The notes under the pieces are model-generated. The model made no database searches, was not told the origin of the DNA, and saw only the letters and a list, made by a program, of their open reading frames with translations. 60,096 nt of DNA from positions 1-60,096 of the forward strand of contig JASFYY010000006.1 of NCBI GenBank assembly GCA_045046875.1, given 5' to 3'. This DNA comes from Verrucomicrobiota bacterium (GTDB taxonomy: Bacteria > Verrucomicrobiota > Verrucomicrobiia > Verrucomicrobiales > DEV007). Position 1 is the first letter of the stretch. The number at the start of each line of letters is the position of its first letter. Positions 23,970-34,854 of this stretch are shown here, one piece after another. A program made the position numbers and the translations under genes.

Positions 23970-24064
23970 TTCAATTTTTCCTAATATCTGAATCTGCCAT
24001 CTTCAACTTGCCCAACAGCTTCATATGACGGTCTTCGAAACACGACAATTTTGCTTTTAGCAGC

Positions 24065-25495
24065 TTATAATTTACCCCTTATTTTTAAAGCTGCTTTTTT
24101 AATAAACCCGAGTCCTTCCGTCTTTTCCCTTCGCGTTACCTCAAGCCGTTTCAATTCTTCCTTTTTCTTTACCAACTCCAGAATCATTTGATCTTGATCC
24201 GAGATCTCCCTCCGCATGCAGTCAAGCTCACTCTCAAATCTCACTTTCTCCTCATCGAGTAATCCAAGCTCTTCAATAGGGTCAATTTGCCCTTCAATTT
24301 CGAGGCCTTCATCAGCATATTTCGTCAACAATTCCTCATATGTCCATGCCTGATGCGAAAGGCTAGTTCCTGCACAGTGAAGTTGCCAACTAGGCAACCC
24401 CGGCATCAAGCTTGAAATGAATGCATCCAGATTCGCAACTCTCTCTCCCTGCCGACCAACCGTATCCTCAAAAACTAGAAACTGTATTCCCCAATCAGCC
24501 ACAATCTTCTCCGATGCAACATCAGACCCGCTTTTGATCACTACTCCTTTCAACCCACGAAATCCATTCACTGCATCAATAACTCTCTTCTCCGGAGCTT
24601 CGGAAGCCTTTGAATCGCTGGATTGGTCGATTAAAAGAACATCAAACCCGCTGTAGTCGGGAATGCTCTCACCGACCTTCATTTCTTCATTAGATCGCTT
24701 TAGAGCAAAATACACATGATGCCGCGAGCAACGATAATAGATGCTTACTGCTCCATCAGAGGCCAATTCCTGCCCTCTTCCCAGATCATCAATCAAAATG
24801 AGAATGTCAAGCCGATGAGGATATCTGCTTTGCTTGCTAATTGCTTCTTCACTCCGAGCAAGCATCGATGCATGCTCGGATTTTGTGAAGCTTTCAATCC
24901 TGTGTGATACCCCTTGATAGACAAACGCCTGTCTCATCCATTCAAAATCTCCATCTTCTTCAAACAGAACACTATCGACCGACCTCTCGAACAATAGAAT
25001 ACGTTTCCTTTTTTCTCGCTCAAAAGCCTCACGCCCCTCTGCTTCCTCTCTCTTCTCTGTCTCATTTCGAAACCTCTCCGTTACAGCAAACATACGATAA
25101 ACCCCAAACGCCCGCTCCCAAAAAGGGATAAACAAGGGGTTCAGCAAAATCAGAATTGGAGCTTTAATCGCCAAAGACCTCATAGCAGACATCACAGCAG
25201 CATTCTGAGCTTGACCCGGGTCAGGAGGAACCGATTCTACTTTACTAACCTTCCCTTCGAACGTAGCAGCCCCTCCTTCAGAAGTTTCTTCAGGCTGAAT
25301 GATGAGCACAGGCAACGATTCTGATAGCTCTTCAAGAAGGTCTATCAGCTGAACCCCGCATCCCCCACTCGCTCCGCCATACGCAAGCACCACCACTCCG
25401 TCTGCTTGCGAAAACAACCGAGCCGATGCTGTCTCACTCTCTATATCGGAAGCCAATGTCATCTGCCGATGATACTGCCTCGAATCCACCGACAA
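24065..25495 (-). CDS. Hypothetical protein, partial degenerate paralog of neighbouring GT-like proteins, with C-terminal coiled coil
   Basis: LDILILID...SRHHVYF...DYSGFDVLLI...FRGLKGVVI aligns with LKILILL...SRHSVSY...DYDKFDVLLI...FSGYKVLIL. Confidence 0.55.
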   Translation of the reverse strand: MSVDSRQYHRQMTLASDIESETASARLFSQADGVVVLAYGGASGGCGVQLIDLLEELSESLPVLIIQPEETSEGGAATFEGKVSKVESVPPDPGQAQNAAVMSAMRSLAIKAPILILLNPLFIPFWERAFGVYRMFAVTERFRNETEKREEAEGREAFEREKRKRILLFERSVDSVLFEEDGDFEWMRQAFVYQGVSHRIESFTKSEHASMLARSEEAISKQSRYPHRLDILILIDDLGRGQELASDGAVSIYYRCSRHHVYFALKRSNEEMKVGESIPDYSGFDVLLIDQSSDSKASEAPEKRVIDAVNGFRGLKGVVIKSGSDVASEKIVADWGIQFLVFEDTVGRQGERVANLDAFISSLMPGLPSWQLHCAGTSLSHQAWTYEELLTKYADEGLEIEGQIDPIEELGLLDEEKVRFESELDCMRREISDQDQMILELVKKKEELKRLEVTRREKTEGLGFIKKAALKIRGKL

Positions 25496-25525
25496 ATCAA
25501 TTCATTACCCTCACTAAAATAGGGA

Positions 25526-25639
25526 TTTTGTCCACGAAGCTCACCAAGGGCACTAAGTTTCTTCAGAAAAGCCTTCTCTTCCTTCGTGACCTTCGTGTTC
25601 TCTTGACCGCCGTAGCTTTGGCGCAGGAGGTTAGTGGAT
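25526..25639. repeat. GxxExxY-associated inverted-repeat element with nested 30-bp hairpin (25601-25630)
   Basis: gtccacgaagctcaccaagggcactaag ... ccttcgtgaccttcgtgttc[30 bp]ttagtggat. Confidence 0.85.
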
Positions 25640-26832
25640 CACTCTCCCACAAACGCCCCAATCGCCGCCACCACCTCATCCCGCCCTTCAGCGCTCAGCT
25701 CTGGAAACACCGGAATGCTCAACACCTCACCCGAAAGCTGATGCGACACCTCACAGCCAGATAGTGAACTAGCTGGCAGATCTTGAAAACAAGGCTGCTG
25801 ATCCATCGTCAACGGATAATAGATCTCACTACCAATGCCGCGTTCCGTCAAATGCGCTCGCAAAGCGTCACGCTGGCCTTCCCCAATCACCCGCAAAGTA
25901 AACTGATTCCAAATATGAGTATTGCCTGGAATGATGATAGGCAATACGATTTTGGCATTTTGACCCGCCATCCACTCATTCTGAGCTGATGCATCACCGC
26001 TATGTCCCAAGTCGGCAGTCACAATTCCAGAGAACTCAGCGAGTTTTTCTGAATAATACGCCGCATTGGCCTGACGGGCAGCGGTGTATTGTTCGTAACG
26101 TTTCAATTTCACCAACAGCAAGGCTGCTTGCAGCGTATCGAGGCGGAAGTTGCCACCCACCACGTGATGATAATATTTCGGCTTGCCTCCATGCATACGC
26201 ATGATTCGGGCTTTTTCTTCTAAAGCAGAATCATTGCAAACCAACATGCCTCCATCTCCAAAGCCCCCGAGGTTTTTACTGGGGAAAAAGCTAAACGTTC
26301 CAAAATCACTCAACCCACCTGAACTCTTGCCATTGTATGCCGCCCCGATCGCTTGAGCCCCATCCTCGATCACCCGTAGATCATGCTCCTTGGCAAAAAC
26401 ATTCACCGCATCCATGTCTGCACTCTGACCGAACAAATGCACCGGCACAATCGCCTTGGTTTTATCCGTGACCTTACGCCTCGCATCCTCGATATCGACA
26501 TTGAAGCTGACCGGGCAAGAATCAACAAACACCGGAGTCGCTCCCGTTCTGGCAATCGTGCCTGCGGTAGCAAAAAAAGTGAAGGTCGGGCAGAGAACTT
26601 CATCCCCAGGACCGAGATCGAGTGCCATGAAGGCCAGCAGCAACGCATCGGTGCCGGAAGAAACTCCGATAGCATACGGTAAGTCTAAAAATGCCGCCAC
26701 TTCATCCTCCAGCTGCTTGACCTCCGGGCCGTTGATGAAACGTCCGTGATTCAAAACGGTGGTGAAAGCTGCGGTGAGCTCCTCCTCAAGAGGCAGATTC
26801 TGGGCGTTGACGTCGAGTAATGGAACGGACAT
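25639..26832 (-). CDS. wbpE: DegT/DnrJ PLP aminotransferase, WbpE/WlbC type
   Basis: SSGTDAL, TFTFFATA, VHLFGQ, IEDGAQAIG, SFFPSKNLGGFGDGG, GGNFRLD; real start MSVPLLD at 26832. Confidence 0.88.
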   Translation of the reverse strand: MSVPLLDVNAQNLPLEEELTAAFTTVLNHGRFINGPEVKQLEDEVAAFLDLPYAIGVSSGTDALLLAFMALDLGPGDEVLCPTFTFFATAGTIARTGATPVFVDSCPVSFNVDIEDARRKVTDKTKAIVPVHLFGQSADMDAVNVFAKEHDLRVIEDGAQAIGAAYNGKSSGGLSDFGTFSFFPSKNLGGFGDGGMLVCNDSALEEKARIMRMHGGKPKYYHHVVGGNFRLDTLQAALLLVKLKRYEQYTAARQANAAYYSEKLAEFSGIVTADLGHSGDASAQNEWMAGQNAKIVLPIIIPGNTHIWNQFTLRVIGEGQRDALRAHLTERGIGSEIYYPLTMDQQPCFQDLPASSLSGCEVSHQLSGEVLSIPVFPELSAEGRDEVVAAIGAFVGE

Positions 26833-26886
26833 GGATAAAGAAGGCTGTAGCGGTTTAGACTGTAGGTTTTTAGGAATCAGAAATCC

Positions 26887-27271
26887 GTCCACTAAGGAGC
26901 ACGAAGTTTTAATACAGAGAACTGAACTTTTAACGGATAAACCCCTATTGTCCACTAATGAACATGAAGTTTTAATACAGAGCATTTTTGTCCACTAAGG
27001 GCACTAAGGAACACGAAGGTTTAATACAGATTTTTTGTCCACTAAGGGCACTAAGGAACACGAAGGGTTAATACAGATTTTTTGTCCACTAAGGGCACCA
27101 AGGGGCACGAAGGGTTAATACAGATTTTTTGTCCACGAAGGACACTAAGGAACACGAAGGGTTAATACAGATTTTTTGTCCACTAAGGGCACTAAGGAAC
27201 ACGAAGGGTTAATACAGATTTTTTGTCCACGAAGGGCACTAAGGAACACGAAGGTTAATATAGATTTTTTT
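26887..27271 (+). repeat. Tandem array: six 47-bp units plus two degenerate units
   Basis: gtccac starts at 26990, 27037, 27084, 27131, 27178, 27225 (period 47); consensus gtccactaagggcactaaggaacacgaagggttaatacagatttttt; degenerate copies at 26887 and 26950. Confidence 0.97.
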
Positions 27272-27340
27272 TAATAAATCCCCTCATTCCTCCCATTTTT
27301 TCCATTTCCCCTTTCCCCCTTCAAAGCTCCTCCTCGTTCT

Positions 27341-27403
27341 CTTCCTTAGTGCCCTTCGTGTCCTTAGTGGATACCTATTCCCCATTCTCTTCCTTAGTGG
27401 ACA
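27341..27403 (-). repeat. Inverted arms of the same repeat, overlapping the 3' end of the GxxExxY gene
   Basis: cttccttagtgcccttcgtgtccttagtggat and ttccttagtggacaaa. Confidence 0.9.
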
Positions 27404-27774
27404 AAGCGTTCCCATTCGAGCTTTCCGCTGCTCCCAAAATTAATCAAAATACCCAACTTCATCTGGCTAACTTTCAGGTAATTCAGAATCTGCGATCGCT
27501 CTTTCCCGGTGAGCTGATCCAAAGCCTTCAATTCAACGATGATTGTCCCAAAACAAATCACATCTGGCACATACTCCTTTTTCAGCAGTTCCCCCTTATA
27601 ATGAATTCGAAGTGACGGCTGCGAATCAAAATCTATGGATCGTTGCTTCAATTCTATTTCTATAGCTTCCTGATAAACCGCCTCAAGAAAACCACAGCCC
27701 AATTCGCGGTGAACCTCAATCGCTGCTCCCACAATGGCAAAACACTCATCCTTTAATAACAACTCTTTTTCCAT
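27394..27774 (-). CDS. GxxExxY protein (PD-(D/E)XK nuclease-like)
   Basis: 126 aa; LGCGFLEAVYQEA (GxxExxY), YVPDVI...IIVELKA (PD..ExK), QILNYLK, GILINFG. Confidence 0.93.
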   Translation of the reverse strand: MEKELLLKDECFAIVGAAIEVHRELGCGFLEAVYQEAIEIELKQRSIDFDSQPSLRIHYKGELLKKEYVPDVICFGTIIVELKALDQLTGKERSQILNYLKVSQMKLGILINFGSSGKLEWERFVH

Positions 27775-27825
27775 CCCCGCTTTTTAGCACCCCCGCCCAC
27801 AAAGAGCACGAACAAACTCATTTTT

Positions 27826-28022
27826 ATCCACTAAGGACACGAAGATTTAATACAGATTTTTTGTCCACTAAGGACACGAAGGAACACGAAGGTTTGATAC
27901 AGATTTTTTTTAATTGGATCCCCTCATTCCTCTTCCTCAGTCCCTCTTGACCGTAGAAGCCTTGGCGCAGGAGGTTCGTGCCCTCTTGACCGCCGTAGCT
28001 TTGGCGAAGGAGATTAACGGAC
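27826..28022. repeat. GxxExxY-associated element with two nested 30-bp hairpins (27945-27974, 27984-28013)
   Basis: atccactaaggacacgaag...gtccactaaggacacgaaggaacacgaag...; reverse arm interrupted twice. Confidence 0.88.
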
Positions 28023-28028
28023 CACCTC

Positions 28029-28067
28029 TTGACAAATGCCTACAGTATCCGTAGGCTGTGTAGGCAT
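28029..28067 (+). promoter_or_regulatory. Sigma70-type promoter and palindromic operator of the TA operon
   Basis: TTGACA (28029-28034), 17 nt, TAGGCT (28052-28057); perfect 9-bp inverted repeat atgcctaca/tgtaggcat (28036-28044/28059-28067) overlapping the ATG. Confidence 0.7.
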
Positions 28068-28317
28068 GAATAAGACGCAGTACACGATTCGACAGATTCC
28101 TGATAATCTGGACATAGCTTTACGCAGTAAAGCGCGGCTTCTAGGTAAGAGTTTGAACAAAGTGTTACTGGAGTCTCTTGCGCAAGGGCTAGGCGTTCAT
28201 GAGGAATCCGCCAAGTATCATGATTTGGACTATTTGGCGGGTTCTTGGAAGGATGATCCGGCTTTTGAGGAAGCACTTAAGGATTTTGAGAAAATTGATG
28301 AAGATTGCTGGAAATGA
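28066..28317 (+). CDS. vapB: Ribbon-helix-helix antitoxin (FitA/VapB-like)
   Basis: QYTIRQIPDNLDIALRSKARLLGKSLNKVLL RHH pattern, acidic C-terminus, ATGA overlap with PIN gene. Confidence 0.82.
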   Translation: MNKTQYTIRQIPDNLDIALRSKARLLGKSLNKVLLESLAQGLGVHEESAKYHDLDYLAGSWKDDPAFEEALKDFEKIDEDCWK

Positions 28318-28700
28318 GATTGCTCATTGATACGAATGCTTACACCGCGTATTGCAAAAATAATCAGATATCACTTGATGCCATCCAGCGTGCAGATGAA
28401 ATCATATTACCGCTAATAGTGCTGGCTGAATTGAGGGCAGGATTTTTTTCAGGGGCACAAGGGGTTGAAAATGAAGCGGTACTAGAGCGTTTTATGAATT
28501 CACCGAGGGTTCGTGTAGGCAGCCCTGATGAAAGCACGACTTATATATATGCTCGCTTGCATTCATATTTAAAAAAACAAGGAACACCGATTCCAACAAA
28601 CGATTTGTGGATTGCTGCGACCACAGTGCATTGTAACGGCATATTGCTGACGTTTGACAAACATTTTGAAAAATTGCCTCAAGTGCCCAGATGGCAATAA
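28314..28700 (+). CDS. vapC: PIN-domain toxin VapC
   Basis: LLIDTNA, VLAEL, GTPIPTNDLWIAA, LLTFDKHF. Confidence 0.92.
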   Translation: MRLLIDTNAYTAYCKNNQISLDAIQRADEIILPLIVLAELRAGFFSGAQGVENEAVLERFMNSPRVRVGSPDESTTYIYARLHSYLKKQGTPIPTNDLWIAATTVHCNGILLTFDKHFEKLPQVPRWQ

Positions 28701-28896
28701 TACAGATTTTTGTCCACTAAGGGCACTAAGGGGCACGAAGTTTAATACAGAGTTTTTTTAATCGGGTCCCTCATTTCTCTTCCTTAGTGCCCTTAGTGTC
28801 CTTAGTGGATCACCTCTTTTCATCTTTCCCGTCCCCCTTCGTGTTTCTTAGTGCCCCTCTTGACCGCCGTAGCTTTGGCGAAGGAGGTTAGTGGAC
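28698..28896. repeat. GxxExxY-associated element with nested 30-bp hairpin (28858-28887)
   Basis: taatacagatttttgtccactaagggcactaaggggcacgaag ... ccttagtgcccttagtgtccttagtggat ... [30 bp]ttagtggac. Confidence 0.9.
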
Positions 28897-28933
28897 AACT
28901 CATCTTTCTTCTCCGAAGTTTCCCCATCTTCTC

Positions 28934-30175
28934 ATGCGGATCCTATTCACCAACAATACCCTCGATAAACCTGCTGGCACCGAGCTGTCTGTTTTTGACT
29001 ACGCCCGCTTACTGAAAGGTCGTGGTCACGAAGTGGCTGCTTTTTCCCGTCAGCAAGGTGAGGTCGCAGACCGATTAAGGGATAAAGGGGTGGTCGTGAT
29101 CGATTCTCTGGAAAAAACACCGTGGAAACCCGATGTCATCCACGGACACCATGAATGGGAAACGAGCCTGGCTGCTTTGCATTTCCCGCAAGTGCCCGTG
29201 ATTTCGTTTCACCGCGGCACCATCCCCTGGCAAGAGGCCCCTTGCCTGGCTCCGAACGTGATTCGCTGGGTAGCGGTAGATGTGGAGTGCCAAAATTCGT
29301 TACTATCCATCTACGCTTGCGAAAAAGATCGAGTGCAAGTCATTCTCAATGGCGTGGATCTTGACCACTTTTCCCAGCGAACTGATTTGCTCGGAAAACT
29401 AGAACGTGTCCTGGTTTTCAGCAACTACGCCAAGGAAGACAACTTCCTCGCTGACATTCGTAAAGCCTGCGAACTAGAGGGAGTGATTTGTCGCGCCGTA
29501 GGTGCAGGTGTAGGCGAAGTGCTCGCCGACCCAAGACCTGCGCTGCAAGAAAGCGATCTGGTTTTCGCCAAAGGCAAAGCTGCACTGGAGGCGGTGGTAA
29601 GCGGTTGCGGGCTGGTAGTATGCGATGCCGAGGGTCTGGGGCCGTTAATCAGCCCAGAAAACTTTACCCGGATGAGAAATCTCAGCTTTGCCTACGATGC
29701 AATGACGGATGAAATCACCGTGGAAAATGTACAAGCTCGACTGCAAGCATGGAATGCTAAAAGCAGCACAGCTACCAGTAAGATAGCAAGAGATTCTGCC
29801 TCTCTCGGTCATGCAGTGGATCAACTTGAATCGCTCTACAAAGAAATATGTCAAGAATGGGTAAAGTCCCCACACCCAGATATAGAAGCAACAACTAGCT
29901 GGGCAACTGCTTTTTTTTCCCACTACAGCCACACCTACAAACTTGGTCGTGAATTGCAACAAATCTGGCGCACTGCCCATCACACTCACTCCCCCGAATT
30001 ACCAATTGATGAAACCATAGAAATGCACCGCATCATGTACGCCTTCCGCGAACAAGAGAAGCGAGTGACTCAATTAGAAGATAAACTGCACAAGTGCGAC
30101 ACGAAAATTTCAACCCTTAAAGAAAAGCTGGAAAAACAAAAAGGCCACTCCACCAAGTGGTGGCAAAAATTCTAA
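28934..30175 (+). CDS. Glycosyltransferase family 4 with C-terminal coiled coil
   Basis: MRILFTN...AGTE, RGHEV, PDVIHGHH, ILNGVDL, KAALEAVVSG. Confidence 0.8.
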   Translation: MRILFTNNTLDKPAGTELSVFDYARLLKGRGHEVAAFSRQQGEVADRLRDKGVVVIDSLEKTPWKPDVIHGHHEWETSLAALHFPQVPVISFHRGTIPWQEAPCLAPNVIRWVAVDVECQNSLLSIYACEKDRVQVILNGVDLDHFSQRTDLLGKLERVLVFSNYAKEDNFLADIRKACELEGVICRAVGAGVGEVLADPRPALQESDLVFAKGKAALEAVVSGCGLVVCDAEGLGPLISPENFTRMRNLSFAYDAMTDEITVENVQARLQAWNAKSSTATSKIARDSASLGHAVDQLESLYKEICQEWVKSPHPDIEATTSWATAFFSHYSHTYKLGRELQQIWRTAHHTHSPELPIDETIEMHRIMYAFREQEKRVTQLEDKLHKCDTKISTLKEKLEKQKGHSTKWWQKF

Positions 30176-30185
30176 AAACATTCCT

Positions 30186-30478
30186 GTCCACGAAGGGCAC
30201 GAAGGAACACTAAGTTTTTAAAAAAATAAAGACCTTCCCATTTTTTGCCTTCAGGTAGTTCCTCTGACTATTCCTCGTGGCGCGGATTGGCAATTTGCCT
30301 TCGGGTAGTTTCCTCCAGCTCTCTCCTTTCAGTCGAGTGCGGATCCCCCGAACCACCCCACCCCCACGCAATGCCATTACGTTCCACATCTCCCCCACTT
30401 CGTCCTAATCTTCTCCTCCTTCGTGTTCCTTAGTGTCCCTCTTGACCGCCGTAGCCTTGGCGTAGGAGGTTAGTGGAC
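30186..30478. repeat. GxxExxY-associated element enclosing a GTGG REP doublet (30277-30387) and a 30-bp hairpin (30440-30469)
   Basis: gtccacgaagggcacgaaggaacactaag ... gtggcgcggattggcaat ... acgcaatgccattacgttccac ... cttcgtgttccttagtgtccc[30 bp]ttagtggac. Confidence 0.88.
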
Positions 30479-30484
30479 AATTTC

Positions 30485-31138
30485 TTAATCCCCCGACTTA
30501 AAGTCATCGTAGCTCTTCGCCCCTTCGCTGAGATCCTCCGGCAAAGCCTGTTCCTCATCAAGATCCAGGCAACGAACCTGCTCTCCATCCTGCTCATAAA
30601 CAAAGCCCGACTCAGGGCACGTGGCATGACCATTTTCGTCAAAGCGCAAGAGATGGCCATGACGGCTCATGTAGCCGACCAAGCGCCCGGGAACTCCCAC
30701 TATCAGACCGTAATCCGGCACATCCTTCGCCACGACCGCACCCGCTGCGATAAAGGCATATCGTCCCAAGGTAATCCCACAAACGATCGTGGCATTCGCT
30801 CCTACCGTTGCCCCACGGCGAATAAGCGTCTTTTCATAGAGCCCCCGCCGCACCACCTGCGAGCGAGGATTAGTAACATTGGTCAGCACACAGGACGGCC
30901 CCAGAAAAACATCATCTTCGATAACCGTTCCGGTATAAATCGCCACGTTGTTCTGCACCTTGACATTACTGCCAATGCGAACGCCTCCCGCCACCATGGT
31001 ATTCTGACCAAAATTACAGCCCTTACCTATTTCCGCCCCATCACAAATATGGGAAAAATGCCATATTTTGCTGCCATCGCCAATAACGGCGCCCTCGTCA
31101 ATCACTGCTGTCGGATGTGAATACATAAGATAAATCAT
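30485..31138 (-). CDS. wbpD: Hexapeptide N-acetyltransferase, WbpD/WlbB type
   Basis: HPTAVIDEGA, KIWHFSH, VKVQNNV, FLGPSCVLTNVTNPRS; alternative start 31126. Confidence 0.9.
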   Translation of the reverse strand: MIYLMYSHPTAVIDEGAVIGDGSKIWHFSHICDGAEIGKGCNFGQNTMVAGGVRIGSNVKVQNNVAIYTGTVIEDDVFLGPSCVLTNVTNPRSQVVRRGLYEKTLIRRGATVGANATIVCGITLGRYAFIAAGAVVAKDVPDYGLIVGVPGRLVGYMSRHGHLLRFDENGHATCPESGFVYEQDGEQVRCLDLDEEQALPEDLSEGAKSYDDFKSGD

Positions 31139-31142
31139 TCTC

Positions 31143-31358
31143 GTCCACTAAGGACACTAAGGAACACTAAGTTTTTTTAATATAAATCATTTCCGTCCAC
31201 GAAGGGCACCAAGGAACACTAAGTTTTTTAATATAAAATCCCACCCCATTTTTCTTCTCTTCCTTCGTGCTCTTAGTGTCCTTAGTGGATACCTTCTCCC
31301 TCGTCTCGGCTCGTATCCCTCTTGACCGCCGTAGCCTTGGCGGAGGAGGTTAGTGGAT
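31143..31358. repeat. GxxExxY-associated element with nested 30-bp hairpin (31320-31349)
   Basis: Two forward arms gtccac(t/g)aagg..cac..aaggaacactaag and two reverse arms ending ttagtggat. Confidence 0.9.
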
Positions 31359-32299
31359 CACTTCTTGATCTCAGCTTTTTCCAAAACCCGGATAACTTCC
31401 AGACCCGACTTTCCATCTGAAATAGGAGTCTCACGACTTTCAATGCAATCCATGAAATGACTCAGTTCGATCTCCAGAGGCTGCTTAGCCCCCTCGTGCA
31501 CGACCTCTTCACCCTCATTAGTGATGTCCAGGGTTTTGCTATCGATACTCTGGCGATGCAATTTCACCGTCTGCTCGATTTCGTTGTAAACCAGCACTCC
31601 TTTTGATCCCACAATCGTCAGGCAACGGCGATTTTCCGGCCACAACCAGGAATTATGCAAATGCGCCTGCACTCCATTGGCAAAATCGAGATGCAGATAC
31701 ACATCATCCTCGATTCCCAACTCAGGCTGCAACCCACTGTGCCCAAAAGCGTTCACCTTTATAGGAGCAGAGCCTACCAAGTGTAATAACACCGCCACAT
31801 CATGCACCCCAAAACTCCACAAAACATTCTCAACATTGCGCGCACGCCCCAACTTCTTACGCTCCTGATGAATCGTAAACACATCCCCAATGACGCCTTC
31901 TTCAATCAAACTCTTGATCCTGCCAATAGCGGGCTGATACATCAACAAATGCCCAACCATCAAGATGCGATCATTGTCTTCGGCTATCTTCACCAAATCC
32001 TCGGCCTCCTCAGCCGTCATCGTCATCGGCTTTTCCACAAAAACATCCTTGCCTGCTTCGAGAAAGGCTTTTGCCACTGCATGATGAGTCGGAGCCGGCG
32101 TAGCAATCGCCACCGCTTTCACCTCATCCAAATTCAACAGATCACTGTAATCCGTATATAAATCCACCTCGGGATAGTCCTTCGCCAATTTTGCGCGAAG
32201 TTCATCACTCGCCTCGGCTACCGCGATTAACGAATTTAATCCCGATAAAGTCCGGACGAGATTCCGCCCCCAATTTCCTGCTCCAATAACTGCTATCAT
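31358..32299 (-). CDS. Gfo/Idh/MocA oxidoreductase, probable UDP-GlcNAcA 3-dehydrogenase (WbpB/WlbA role)
   Basis: IGAGNWG, DVFVEKPM, LMVGH, GVHD; located between wbpA and wbpD. Confidence 0.82.
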   Translation of the reverse strand: MIAVIGAGNWGRNLVRTLSGLNSLIAVAEASDELRAKLAKDYPEVDLYTDYSDLLNLDEVKAVAIATPAPTHHAVAKAFLEAGKDVFVEKPMTMTAEEAEDLVKIAEDNDRILMVGHLLMYQPAIGRIKSLIEEGVIGDVFTIHQERKKLGRARNVENVLWSFGVHDVAVLLHLVGSAPIKVNAFGHSGLQPELGIEDDVYLHLDFANGVQAHLHNSWLWPENRRCLTIVGSKGVLVYNEIEQTVKLHRQSIDSKTLDITNEGEEVVHEGAKQPLEIELSHFMDCIESRETPISDGKSGLEVIRVLEKAEIKK

Positions 32300-32358
32300 T
32301 TAGAAAAATTTGAAATCTAATATTTGAAATTTAAAATCACCAAAGTCGTCCCCTCTTC

Positions 32359-32423
32359 TCTTCCTTCGTGTATCTTCGTGCCCATCTTGACCGCCGTAGC
32401 CTTGGCGGAGGAGGTTAGTGGAC
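32359..32423 (-). repeat. Reverse arm of GxxExxY-associated repeat with nested 30-bp hairpin (32385-32414)
   Basis: ttccttcgtgtatcttcgtgccca[30 bp]ttagtggac. Confidence 0.85.
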
Positions 32424-32439
32424 AATTTTCTCCCCCCCC

Positions 32440-33759
32440 TCAAGCTTTGAGCACTTGCCCGGTCTTGGTCTCGCGAGTCCCTAATAAATTACGGGTGTCA
32501 ATAATGGTATCGCTCCATTCCACTAGCTCATCCAGATTGTATTTATCGTGAGAAGTGGCAATCAACACACAGTCATAGGAACTCACGTTTTGCTGATTCC
32601 ACTCAATAGATTTCTGCCCCGTCCACCGAGCGTGCTCTCGGGTCGGTGGCACCTCATCCACGTGTGGATCAAAATAATCCACCTCGGCTCCACTATCGGC
32701 AAGCAGATCCATCAACTTGAAACTGGCCGACTCACGCACATCATCCACATTGGATTTATACGCCAAGCCCATCACCAACACCTTACTGCCGCGCACCGCC
32801 TTACTTTGCTCATTCAACTTATCCGAAACCCGGTGCACCACATGCTGGGGCATCGATTCATTGATCTCCCCCGCCAGTTCAATAAATCGAGTGTGAATAT
32901 TATATTCCTTCGCTTTCCATGTCAGATAAAACGGATCAATAGGAATACAATGCCCACCCAGACCCGGCCCGGGATAAAAAGGCGTGAAGCCAAACGGCTT
33001 GGTCGCCGCCGCTTGAATCACTTCCCAAATATCAACATTCATCGCCTCCGCAACGATCTTCATTTCATTCACCAGGCCGATATTCACCGAACGGTAAATG
33101 TTCTCCAATAGTTTGGTGAACTCTGCCGCACGAGTCGAACTGACAGGGACTACTTGGTCGCATACCAAATTATAAAGAGCTTCCCCTTCCACCAAACATG
33201 CAGGAGTCGTTCCCCCGATCACTTTAGGAATAGTGGTATTGGTAAAATCAGGGTTTCCTGGATCCTCGCGTTCCGGAGAAAAGACGAGAAAACAATCTTC
33301 GCCCACTTTCAACCCTTGGGCCTCAATTCGAGGCAATAGCTCTTCATCTGTCGTCCCTGGATAAGTAGTGCTCTCCAAGCTGACCAATTGCCCAGCTTTT
33401 AAATGAGGCACGATAGCTTCCACCGTACTGACCACGTAACTCAAATCAGGCTCGTGGTACTTGCTCAACGGGGTAGGCACGCAGATCACAATGGCATCGC
33501 TTTTTGCCACACAAGCAAAATCCGTAGTCGCTGAAAAATTTCCACCGTCTACAACGGCAGCGATTCGTCCGGCCTCAATATGCTCAATGTAGCTCTCCCC
33601 TTTATTCAAGGTCTCTACTTTATTCACATCAATGTCCAAGCCAAAAGTCTGCAAACCCGCTTTGGCAAAATTCAGAGCCAAAGGCAAGCCCACATAACCC
33701 ATCCCCACCACGGTCACCACCGCGTCGCCAGCTGTTATTTTATTCTGTAGTGATGACAT
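32440..33759 (-). CDS. wbpA: Nucleotide-sugar (UDP-GlcNAc) 6-dehydrogenase, WbpA type
   Basis: GMGYVGLP, CVPTP, ESTTYPGTT, SPEREDPGN, KLLEN, PGPGLGGHCIPIDP. Confidence 0.9.
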   Translation of the reverse strand: MSSLQNKITAGDAVVTVVGMGYVGLPLALNFAKAGLQTFGLDIDVNKVETLNKGESYIEHIEAGRIAAVVDGGNFSATTDFACVAKSDAIVICVPTPLSKYHEPDLSYVVSTVEAIVPHLKAGQLVSLESTTYPGTTDEELLPRIEAQGLKVGEDCFLVFSPEREDPGNPDFTNTTIPKVIGGTTPACLVEGEALYNLVCDQVVPVSSTRAAEFTKLLENIYRSVNIGLVNEMKIVAEAMNVDIWEVIQAAATKPFGFTPFYPGPGLGGHCIPIDPFYLTWKAKEYNIHTRFIELAGEINESMPQHVVHRVSDKLNEQSKAVRGSKVLVMGLAYKSNVDDVRESASFKLMDLLADSGAEVDYFDPHVDEVPPTREHARWTGQKSIEWNQQNVSSYDCVLIATSHDKYNLDELVEWSDTIIDTRNLLGTRETKTGQVLKA

Positions 33760-33960
33760 AAAAAACTATAAATATTTGCGCAAAAAAAACCAATTACCTC
33801 CCCCCTCCACGGTCGAAGACAAATAACCGCAAATAAGCAAAAGAAAAAGAATCATTTTAATAATTCATTTTTCATTGCCTCCATTTCAACACACCATCCT
33901 CACCAGCGCATCGCCCAATTAACCTCTCCCTCATGGAAGAGCGAGCTCCCCGCTCGATAA

Positions 33961-34854
33961 TTATTTTTTCAGTTGAGGAGCGAGATAGTCGTTAACATAA
34001 CGATTAACGCCTTGTTTCCAATAGGGCATGGTCTGACCACTGAGGGTTTGATAACGTTCACTGGACATGGCGGAGTAGGCGGGGCGTTGGGCGACAAAGC
34101 TTTTGATGTCACTCATCAAGCAACTCTCAATATTCGACGTATGAATGGGAACCCCACTTTCCACCGCACAATCAACGCAATATTGCGCCCACTCCTGCCA
34201 AGAGCAGACCCCTTGATTGCATAAATGTAAGATCCCCGAGACTTCAAACTCTCCATCAATCATCGGTTGCAGTGCAGAAATAACGTCTTGCGTATAGGTC
34301 GGAGATGCCCACCGGTTGGCAACAACAGAAAAAGCTTCGTCTCCCATTGCCTTCCCTATCACCCATTCAGGAAAACCGGGCTTATTCTCACCAAATAACC
34401 AGGATAAGCGTATCACCAAATTTGTCGCCGATTGCCCAAGCAACCTTTCTTCTGCTCTTGCTTTTGATGCGCCATAAACACTTAGCGGATGCGTGTGATC
34501 ATCTTCCTGATAAAGCTCTTTTTTTTCTCCATCAAAAACGTAGTCCGTACTGAAAAAAATCACCTGCGCCCCTTTCCGGGCACTGATCCGCGCGATCGTC
34601 TCGACCGCAAGAGCATTGACCTTTTCCGTCTGATCCGGATGACTTTCACAATAATCCACATTCGTCAATGCAGCCGTCAACCACAGCGTGTCGTAATCCA
34701 GCGTTTCGAGAGTCGCGTTAATGGATGCCTCATCCGCCAAATCCATCTCCCGACGTCCTAGAGACGTCACGGTATGTCCGGCAGCACCACAAGCCGTGCG
34801 CAGAGCACTGCCCAAGCGCCCATTAGCTCCAACGATCACACTGTGTTTACTCAT
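33961..34854 (-). CDS. rfbD: dTDP-4-dehydrorhamnose reductase
   Basis: GANGRLG, TNVDYCE, STDYVFDG, YGASK, SPTY, RPAYS. Confidence 0.9.
   Translation of the reverse strand: MSKHSVIVGANGRLGSALRTACGAAGHTVTSLGRREMDLADEASINATLETLDYDTLWLTAALTNVDYCESHPDQTEKVNALAVETIARISARKGAQVIFFSTDYVFDGEKKELYQEDDHTHPLSVYGASKARAEERLLGQSATNLVIRLSWLFGENKPGFPEWVIGKAMGDEAFSVVANRWASPTYTQDVISALQPMIDGEFEVSGILHLCNQGVCSWQEWAQYCVDCAVESGVPIHTSNIESCLMSDIKSFVAQRPAYSAMSSERYQTLSGQTMPYWKQGVNRYVNDYLAPQLKK

Follow-up and report, generated by a model that had tools for sequence, protein, structure and literature searches.

A GxxExxY gene with hairpin arms of phased heptamers and its gene-less copies in a verrucomicrobial sugar-nucleotide operon: a candidate selfish DNA element

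Why should every gap in one stretch of a bacterial operon carry a member of a single family of repeats, with a small nuclease-like gene in their midst? The question is raised by a DNA stretch of 60,096 nt (hereafter the window), which is the whole of contig C6 of the draft genome G000 of a Verrucomicrobiota bacterium (5.59 Mb, 163 contigs, guanine-plus-cytosine (GC) content 51%). A sugar-nucleotide operon on the minus strand spans its 25.5–32.4 kb region and is interrupted by a block of small genes, one of which encodes a GxxExxY protein; members of one repeat family are present in all seven gaps between these genes. The sequence comparisons described below indicate that the unit is the small PD-(D/E)XK (GxxExxY) gene together with inverted arms of three phased CAC(T/G)AAG words, inherited and transferred together. 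We read the stretch as a hairpin-armed selfish gene cassette with its gene-less copies, multiplied by a nuclease-driven, homing-like process resembling that of REPINs (hairpin-forming doublets of repetitive extragenic palindromes, REPs), and in our judgement this reading has about an even chance of being right.

The repeat family has two modules: the CAC(T/G)AAG arms, local to this stretch, and a motif of ~30 nt (TTGACCGCCGTAGCYTTGGCG...), here called motif B, nested in the arms. An arm consists of three CAC(T/G)AAG words at 9–10 nt spacing, and the order within an element is forward arm (GTCCAC(T/G)AAGG-CAC(T/G)AAGG-CAC(G/T)AAG), A/T-rich loop (TTTAATACAGATTTTTT...) and inverted arm. At each of the seven sites motif B lies at one fixed arm point, between the terminal word and the one before it. 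Two complete elements, directly oriented to each other, flank the GxxExxY gene, whose last two codons and TAA stop are provided by a terminal arm word. The gene and the repeat features are as follows.

25526–25640, unstranded: element 1, between a 476-aa gene and the DegT stop, with a diverged forward arm (25529–25557), inverted words (25578–25600), motif B (25603–25636) and a terminal word abutting the DegT stop.
26887–26982, plus strand: two short forward arms of two words each, each with a TTTTAATACAGAG loop stub.
26953–27270, plus strand: tandem array of period 47 and 6.7 copies (Tandem Repeats Finder), adjoining the GxxExxY gene; the unit is a forward arm plus the left half of the loop.
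27337–27402, unstranded: inverted arm (27337–27373) closing the left hairpin, and an extra terminal word (27388–27402).
27394–27774, minus strand: GxxExxY/PDDEXK_3 gene, intact, 126 aa, identified by profile matches.
27821–27945, unstranded: right hairpin, with forward arms (27826–27845 and 27863–27891), loop and a decayed inverted arm.
27940–28019, plus strand: two tandem copies of motif B (one copy in the X6 allele described below).
28706–28900, unstranded: element 4, with a forward arm (28712–28740), an inverted arm (28779–28809) and a second inverted arm (28836–28856) with nested motif B and terminal word.
30183–30480, unstranded: element 5, with a forward arm (30186–30214), unrelated dispersed modules (30272–30401) and an inverted arm (30418–30438) with nested motif B and terminal word.
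31139–31357, unstranded: element 6, with forward arms (31143–31171 and 31195–31223), an inverted arm (31259–31291), motif B and a terminal word abutting the Gfo/Idh stop.
32350–32425, unstranded: element 7, a partial inverted arm (32364–32385) with nested motif B and terminal word, lacking a forward partner.

The arms are far too frequent to have arisen by chance. Allowing at most one mismatch, the two-word pattern CACKAAGGNNCACKAAG matches 15 times in the window, all within 26890–32380, with 0.02 matches expected and 0/100 shuffles reaching 15. The 29-mer arm (IUPAC-coded, at most three mismatches) matches 11 times in the window, all on the plus strand and in five gaps, with 0.00 expected; six of these matches lie in the 47-nt tandem array (26990–27253) and the others start at 27863, 28712, 30186, 31143 and 31195. 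A second tandem array, of period 52 and 2.2 copies, was reported at 31126–31237. A first-pass annotation of the window had described sub-repeats at 9–10 nt, densest beside the GxxExxY gene and confined to the neighbourhood, and all three points hold: genome-wide, 35 of the 38 matches to a two-word regular expression are on the window contig, with one each on C25, C75 and C144. Its seven repeat-bearing sites stand in the sense that all seven gaps hold members, but a full forward arm is present in five only, the exceptions being 25526–25640 (diverged arm) and 32350–32425 (partial inverted arm and motif B only). Folded as RNA of the operon strand and compared with shuffles, the hairpins at 27224–27373 (z −5.97), 28706–28812 (z −7.08) and 31143–31292 (z −5.46) are strong, those at 25526–25640 (z −2.46) and 27821–27945 (z −2.06) are weak, and 32350–32425, without an arm partner, gives z +0.91; the arms of the 30186/30418 pair are ~200 nt apart, and the folding scores cover the other elements only. 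The six sites with paired arms claimed earlier are therefore roughly right, but only three fold strongly. The seven elements agree in polarity and in their nested motif-B insert, and were therefore probably copied from one progenitor within the locus.

What kind of protein does the gene encode? The product matches TIGR04256 (E 6.2e-41, 139.4 bits, cut-off 35) and PF13366 (E 1.8e-40, 138.4 bits, cut-off 22); its GxxExxY motif occupies residues 28–34, and E31, D71, E81 and K83 are invariant in 30/30 aligned homologues. An AlphaFold2 model (predicted local distance difference test score, pLDDT, 94.4) has as its best Foldseek matches Cas4 SSO0001 (E 1.6e-5) and the Hjc Holliday-junction resolvases (E 1.4e-3), and also lambda exonuclease. 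The alignment and the model thus place the PD-(D/E)XK catalytic residues and fold in the window's GxxExxY protein, in agreement with what had been proposed from the letters alone. A sequence search of solved structures with this protein gave no match at E up to 1, PADLOC assigned 0 defence families to it and its two neighbouring small proteins, and in profile searches it matched no transposase family. PF13366/TIGR04256 is a large orphan family, with matches in 109/151 sampled genomes of this order alone, and a 2012 survey of PD-(D/E)XK proteins gave its function as unknown. No published pairing of GxxExxY with repeats was found in the openly available text searched, including the accessible part of PMC8934634, with subscription journals and figures outside the search. 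The partnership with phased-word hairpins gives this orphan family a genomic role that can be taken to the bench.

The partnership is not peculiar to the window. G000 has three GxxExxY loci and all of them (3/3) have phased-word arms, in a different word each time: the gene on C133 sits between two hairpins of CACGAAA words, and that on C15 (C15:31914–32498, L022), split by a ~290-nt insert, between other inverted repeats. The insert itself has long inverted ends and looks like a different small foldback element. In an order-level sample of 151 genomes, 30 GxxExxY loci were taken from 30 genomes, 29 of them usable for a flank-match test. These loci have phased arms of period 9–10, with the words CACAGAG, CGCAGAG, CACGGAG, CGCAGAT, CACGAAA, ACAGGAT and others, and the gene is found inside one hairpin (in many relatives) or between two. 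The inverted flank match exceeds control at 22/29 usable loci of the order and at 7/9 of the closest relatives from other phyla. In addition, as the first-pass annotation had anticipated, the repeat covaries with the protein: the arm word follows the protein tree with 13 changes, as compared with a shuffled mean of 20.2 (range 16–24), and 0/1000 shuffles were as low. The window protein falls in a supported clade, all members of which have CACGAA(A/G) arms, and across nine loci of that clade the density of CACNAA is 18.3 per kb in flanks vs 1.2 per kb in coding parts, a 15-fold difference.

The nearest homologues in other phyla are from Chloroflexi (65% protein identity), Anaerolineae (55–58%), Cloacimonetes (43–50%) and Scalindua (54%). 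Most cross-phylum homologues keep CAC(G/T/A)AA(G/A/T) arms with (A/G)TCCAC termini, those of the Chloroflexi homologue being CACGAAG, and the gene with its arms is often a single gene wedged between housekeeping genes. At 50–65% protein identity, arms of the CACGAA type are retained in Chloroflexi, Anaerolineae and Cloacimonetes. A gene-plus-repeat package that recurs in this manner across phyla looks like a selfish DNA element without earlier description. A second protein family shares the design. Genes for four-helix-bundle (S23p-like) proteins, found in 132/151 genomes, have at 30 loci the same layout with other words (GTTGATA, TTAGC, AAGGGAT, GGCCAGT and others) and a period of 7–8, and the flank match exceeds control at 15/29 loci in the order; the single such gene of G000, on C113, is flanked by inverted GTTAGGA/GTTAGAA words and occupies the space exactly between two host genes. 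Because the layout is shared and the words differ, the arms go with the protein family. Gene orientation relative to neighbours, scored on stop-to-stop frames, came to 12 vs 17 for GxxExxY and 16 vs 13 for four-helix-bundle genes, by a method too crude for the counts to be read.

If the cassette is a unit, does it come and go as one? Natural alleles were sought among DNA contigs of four metagenome runs aligned to 24000–34000 of the window at ≥90% likeness; such contigs represent mixed communities and prove that the forms exist, not their frequency. X1 record 2 (1104 nt, ~95% alike) runs from DegT to 26981 and continues at 27821, skipping 839 nt that comprise array, inverted arm and the whole GxxExxY gene, and both edges are at the start of a TTTTT(G/A)TCCACTAAGG word. 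In X6 record 27 (1157 nt), from a different study, 27021 is followed directly by 27906, and a single motif B stands where the window has two; the record continues through the PIN pair to 28698, so that one ordinary gene-less hairpin replaces the hairpin-gene-hairpin arrangement; record 28 of X6 carries the GxxExxY gene in another context. The breakpoints of both gene-less alleles lie within repeats. Recombination between the two flanking hairpins thus deletes the gene, with a single gene-less hairpin staying behind, and the empty sites whose existence among strains the first-pass annotation had made a check on its proposal do occur. Weaker contig joints (X1, 26918 to 28707, side 29; X2, 28811 to 30185, side 20) were too short to count. 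Presence or absence of a gene at one site among close relatives is also what a free-standing homing endonuclease gene displays.

The block is variable beyond the GxxExxY gene. Its accessory cassettes and the operon genes around them are:

25639–26835, minus strand: DegT-type aminotransferase, operon gene.
28036–28700, plus strand: accessory cassette of a small open reading frame (ORF; weak FitA-like ribbon-helix-helix match, below cut-off) and a PIN-domain VapC-like toxin.
28934–30175, plus strand: accessory cassette, GT4-like glycosyltransferase of 413 aa.
30485–31138, minus strand: hexapeptide acetyltransferase, operon gene.
31358–32299, minus strand: Gfo/Idh/MocA dehydrogenase, operon gene.
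32440–33759, minus strand: NDP-sugar dehydrogenase, operon gene.

In the relatives G002 and G004, whose genes are 71–78% identical, DegT adjoins the acetyltransferase; the GxxExxY, PIN pair and GT4 block is therefore an insertion in G000. The sister genome G005 (90–94% identical) has the order GT4, hairpin, a different PIN/MazE pair, second hairpin, acetyltransferase, where G000 has one element, and carries a DUF433 fragment at the place of the G000 PIN pair. Other small accessory cassettes, namely PIN toxin pairs and a glycosyltransferase, thus have these same hairpins at their borders and differ between sister genomes. Gene-less hairpins of the CACKAAG word (K, G or T) also occur at unrelated places in G001 and G003, of the same genus.

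A three-word census of G000 found 74 phased arrays of C(A/G)C(G/T/C)AA words vs 1 in the reversed control; it replaced a two-word census, the background of which was too high (288 vs 126 in the control). Three-word CACKAA arrays are present in 59/151 genomes of the order, with controls near zero. G051 (same order; L095–L097) combines 167 gene-less CACGAAA arrays with a resident gene whose arms are of the same word. Most of these arrays, lying in both orientations, are ~125-nt hairpins in which a 70-nt loop and the outer flanks are conserved; G051 would make a good model population for this class of element. Similarly, in G055 a gene with CACGAAT arms is accompanied by 24 CACKAAT arrays.

We propose that the nuclease would recognise the phased words, one per helical turn, and nick or cut at the arms or at the extruded hairpin, after which repair might copy the element into homologous or nearby sites in a homing-like, REPIN-like manner. 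We infer this reading of the words by the enzyme, and copying driven by its cuts at the arms, from the family-specific words, their one-turn spacing and the lack of any other constant partner. Such a mechanism would explain a common kind of intergenic repeat outside Proteobacteria, as well as the entry of small accessory cassettes into operons.

Several observations weigh against this reading. The crossover points differ between the two gene-less alleles, and plain homologous recombination would suffice for them with no dedicated enzyme. The CAC(T/G)AAG word is almost absent in trans in G000 (3/38 matches), and no gene with CACKAAT arms was seen in the G000 assembly, where CACKAAT (period 10, ~35 arrays) is the commonest word. 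G005, at 95% completeness, holds 29 CACKAA arrays and no GxxExxY match, and arrays occur in 7/42 sampled genomes without such a match. Outside the streamlined small-genome family f2, a hand tally gave arrays in 5/12 genomes without the gene vs 49/103 with it, rates that indicate no dependence of arrays on the gene. The REPIN-like system proposed in the first-pass annotation finds partial support: gene and arms make up one unit, but arrays also occur in genomes lacking the gene. Further, linkage or kinship alone can produce the match between arm word and protein clade, and an equivalent vehicle carries the four-helix-bundle protein, a non-nuclease. Finally, the arms abut stop codons with fixed polarity, which is not what a palindrome model confined to DNA would lead one to expect.

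Which known system does the cassette resemble most? Its nearest known counterpart in build is an intervening sequence (IVS) of 23S rRNA that bears an ORF, and not the REPIN with its REP-associated tyrosine transposase (RAYT). The 23S IVS of Coxiella burnetii has terminal inverted repeats that pair in a 28-bp stem, contains an ORF preceded by tandem heptamers (GACAGAT), is excised by RNase III in vitro and is regarded as selfish (PMC4990558). IVSs of Coxiella and Leptospira, with their S23p ORF, share with the cassette a small ORF, stem-forming inverted repeats and tandem heptamers by the ORF, and the S23p-family gene of G000 has the same layout. In contrast, the present cassette lies between protein-coding genes of an operon and not in rRNA helix 25 or 45; its passenger is a predicted PD-(D/E)XK nuclease, the gene stands between two hairpins and not within one, and there are many gene-less copies. 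RNase III cutting is a feature of the IVS; for 25400–32500 of the window, a search for RNA runs containing the stretch found none.

The likeness invites a wider and more tentative proposal, one that we consider possible though on balance doubtful: GxxExxY proteins would be putative sequence-specific endonucleases of very widespread, previously undescribed minimal mobile elements, each a ~125-aa nuclease gene plus inverted arrays of a phased 7-nt word read by the enzyme, which home into gene-less hairpins just after stops and also multiply as such hairpins, with the ORF-bearing 23S IVS as a sister branch in which a four-helix bundle replaces the nuclease. If this is true, many 'REP-like' intergenic hairpins outside Proteobacteria would be relics of these elements, and the proposal would explain the origin of rRNA intervening sequences, for which, to our knowledge, there has been no explanation since about 1990. 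Practical interest would also attach to a small nuclease able to read a tunable 7-nt word.

The alternative that fares best draws on the IVS parallel and places the function in RNA. Here the arms would act in the operon transcript as a stem that RNase III cuts, freeing or insulating the small ORF and giving the adjacent cistrons protective stems; the nuclease would be a passenger with another cellular role, and host recombination would spread the element. Placement of the arms speaks for it: in 25.5–33.8 kb the start of the arm terminus [GAT]TCCAC[GT]AA falls between −9 and +16 nt relative to the stop-codon end at 7/7 terminal genes, on each gene's own strand; elsewhere in the genome 22/49 merged arms outside C6 begin ≤40 nt after a same-strand stop (CAC sense), with ~6.5% expected at random places. 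Arm midpoints lie in a long open frame in 27/64 cases vs 92% of random places. The hairpins fold strongly as RNA, the Coxiella IVS has the same build (PMC4990558), and a gene of the IVS ORF family has the same layout on C113 and at the 15/29 order loci that exceed control. It is this fixed polarity after stops, together with the parallel to RNase III-cut rRNA intervening sequences, that keeps an RNA-level role under consideration. Against it, a mere RNase III substrate stem explains neither the phased 7-nt word nor word repertoires specific to protein families. G-U-compatible pairs among the arm mismatches are in no excess on the gene's sense strand (47 vs 45, no signal either way), a search of 25000–33000 against Rfam gave no family match at E up to 1, and the mismatches concentrate outside the periodic cores (4/211 vs 65/404, in a partly circular test of little weight). 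On balance we regard the RNA-level explanation as rather unlikely.

Could the hairpins instead be generic exchange sites, at which any small cassette is inserted or lost through an enzyme whose gene lies elsewhere, for example an integron-type integrase or an HUH Y1 transposase, with GxxExxY as a frequent cargo? There are resemblances to integron cassettes: single genes each have a 3' imperfect palindrome, toxin-antitoxin cargo is carried and content differs between close relatives, as it does at these hairpins between G000 and G005. An arm follows every terminal gene in 25.5–33.8 kb, as an attC follows the ORF in integron cassettes. The genome, too, encodes candidate enzymes, namely an integron integrase on C117 (C117:19327–20271, L019 5247–6281; 357.7 bits, cut-off 265, one in-frame TAG), a second, partial match at the end of C27, cut by the contig end, and 15 Y1_Tnp-like matches. 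All of these are on other contigs, however, with no integrase or Y1 gene near the locus; the arms have no R''/R' boxes, gene orientations are mixed, the crossover points of the alleles differ, and the arms travel with GxxExxY itself across phyla. An attC reading of the arms was rejected, the integrases being on C117 and C27 only and the genome's attC-like site near the C117 integrase (L019 7060–7205; TCCTAAC ... GTTATCT) being unlike the phased-word arms. Exchange by an enzyme from elsewhere is thus improbable. Same-strand clusters of arrays (G153:C126 and G006:C106) were likewise set aside as evidence of cargo, since they consist mostly of repeat-derived open frames with one 415-aa gene.

Still less can be said for host-serving repeats of the REP or bacterial interspersed mosaic element (BIME) type, according to which the hairpins would be intercistronic mRNA stabilisers, attenuators or nucleoid-protein sites and the GxxExxY gene an incidental neighbour. 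In favour, the operon gaps of G002 are filled by hairpins of other words, the polarity after stop codons is fixed, and motif B contains GTAG and resembles the REPs of Opitutus terrae. Yet no such arrays were seen in the gaps of the G004 operon, presence/absence alleles exist, and linkage of arms to one small gene family across phyla is not expected of host regulatory sites; nor are the hairpins like intrinsic terminators, a terminator and promoter scan having given nothing above shuffles (terminator-like sites 3 vs 7.4 expected, none at elements). We hold this explanation to be quite improbable.

Motif B, on which part of that case turns, is a separate, genome-wide, REP-like repeat, a second module of the family that the first-pass annotation had overlooked. 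Beyond the window, ~20 other contigs carry it; copies form tandem runs where contigs end or are nested at the same point in arms of other words, and it is found in frame within ~375-aa HUH Y1-like proteins. According to PMC3733652, GTAG-tagged REPs are abundant in O. terrae, inside genes too. With these motif B shares a size of ~30 nt, GTAG, dispersal over ~20 contigs, tandem runs and in-frame occurrence within ORFs, a likeness drawn from the published description and not from the consensus sequence. It differs in having no fold of its own (alone it folds no better than shuffles, z about 0) and in its fixed nesting within phased-word arms of several words. Around 13 copies of a 360–390-aa HUH Y1-transposase-like ORF (motif HFHLLLE) with an in-frame, mid-protein motif-B-like module were noted on C63, C2, C55 and other contigs (for example L017 1229–2356), and these modules fit the 'intragenic GTAG REPs' reported for O. 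terrae.

How far, then, does the comparison with REPINs in the first-pass annotation go? Both systems have one small enzyme gene flanked by intergenic repeats that are also found as gene-less hairpin doublets, the pairing of enzyme and repeat recurs (3/3, 22/29 and 7/9 loci), and G051 provides a dispersed, genome-wide population (167 arrays). Such a population is not seen in G000, however, where 35/38 matches are local and the word is not dispersed in trans; motif B, the only part with GTAG, is separate from the arms. The enzyme is of the PD-(D/E)XK and not the HUH Y1 type, and the arms are phased 7-nt word arrays instead of a GTAG/CGTC-tagged palindrome. REPIN-RAYT systems are described as vertically inherited, unlike the cassette unit, which moves between phyla. 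Miniature inverted-repeat transposable elements and their parent insertion sequences share the presence of short gene-less foldback copies of a longer gene-bearing element, and inverted arms are present here as well; no transposase of a known family is found, no target-site duplication was seen at the two allele junctions (the breakpoints being inside repeats), and the gene-less form, as far as observed, arises by recombination between flanking hairpins.

The weakest alternative, that the word is common in a donor genome and arrived with a polysaccharide island, so that its confinement would be uninformative about the nuclease, is very improbable indeed: sugar clusters are often transferred horizontally and GC is 41–46% around 20–29 kb vs 51% genome-wide, but low GC does not decide origin, CACKAAG hairpins occur at the unrelated places in G001 and G003 noted above, the conserved operon genes at 30.5–33.8 kb (71–94% identical to four relatives) carry arms too, and no large dispersed CACKAAG population was found in the 151 genomes among the matches listed.

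Some further observations concern the surrounding sequence. Single arm words and motif B expand to pure tandem runs, with a 10-nt unit repeated 9 times, a 9-nt unit 7 times and a 30-nt unit, at contig ends, at least 3 times (C56:29434–29520, C144:15463–15525 and the starts of C39 and C123), and such repeats probably break the assembly. The dispersed repeat module within element 5 (30272–30401; GCGGATTGGCAAT... and CACGCAATNCCATTRCGT) is present in dozens of copies at 77–95% identity in G003 and G005. Just 5' of sugar-operon start codons in three species, a CTAAACC.CTACAGCC-like motif is found (window 26836–26880; G002:C167 ~1775–1810; gaps of G004:C76), which may be a 5'-leader or promoter element.

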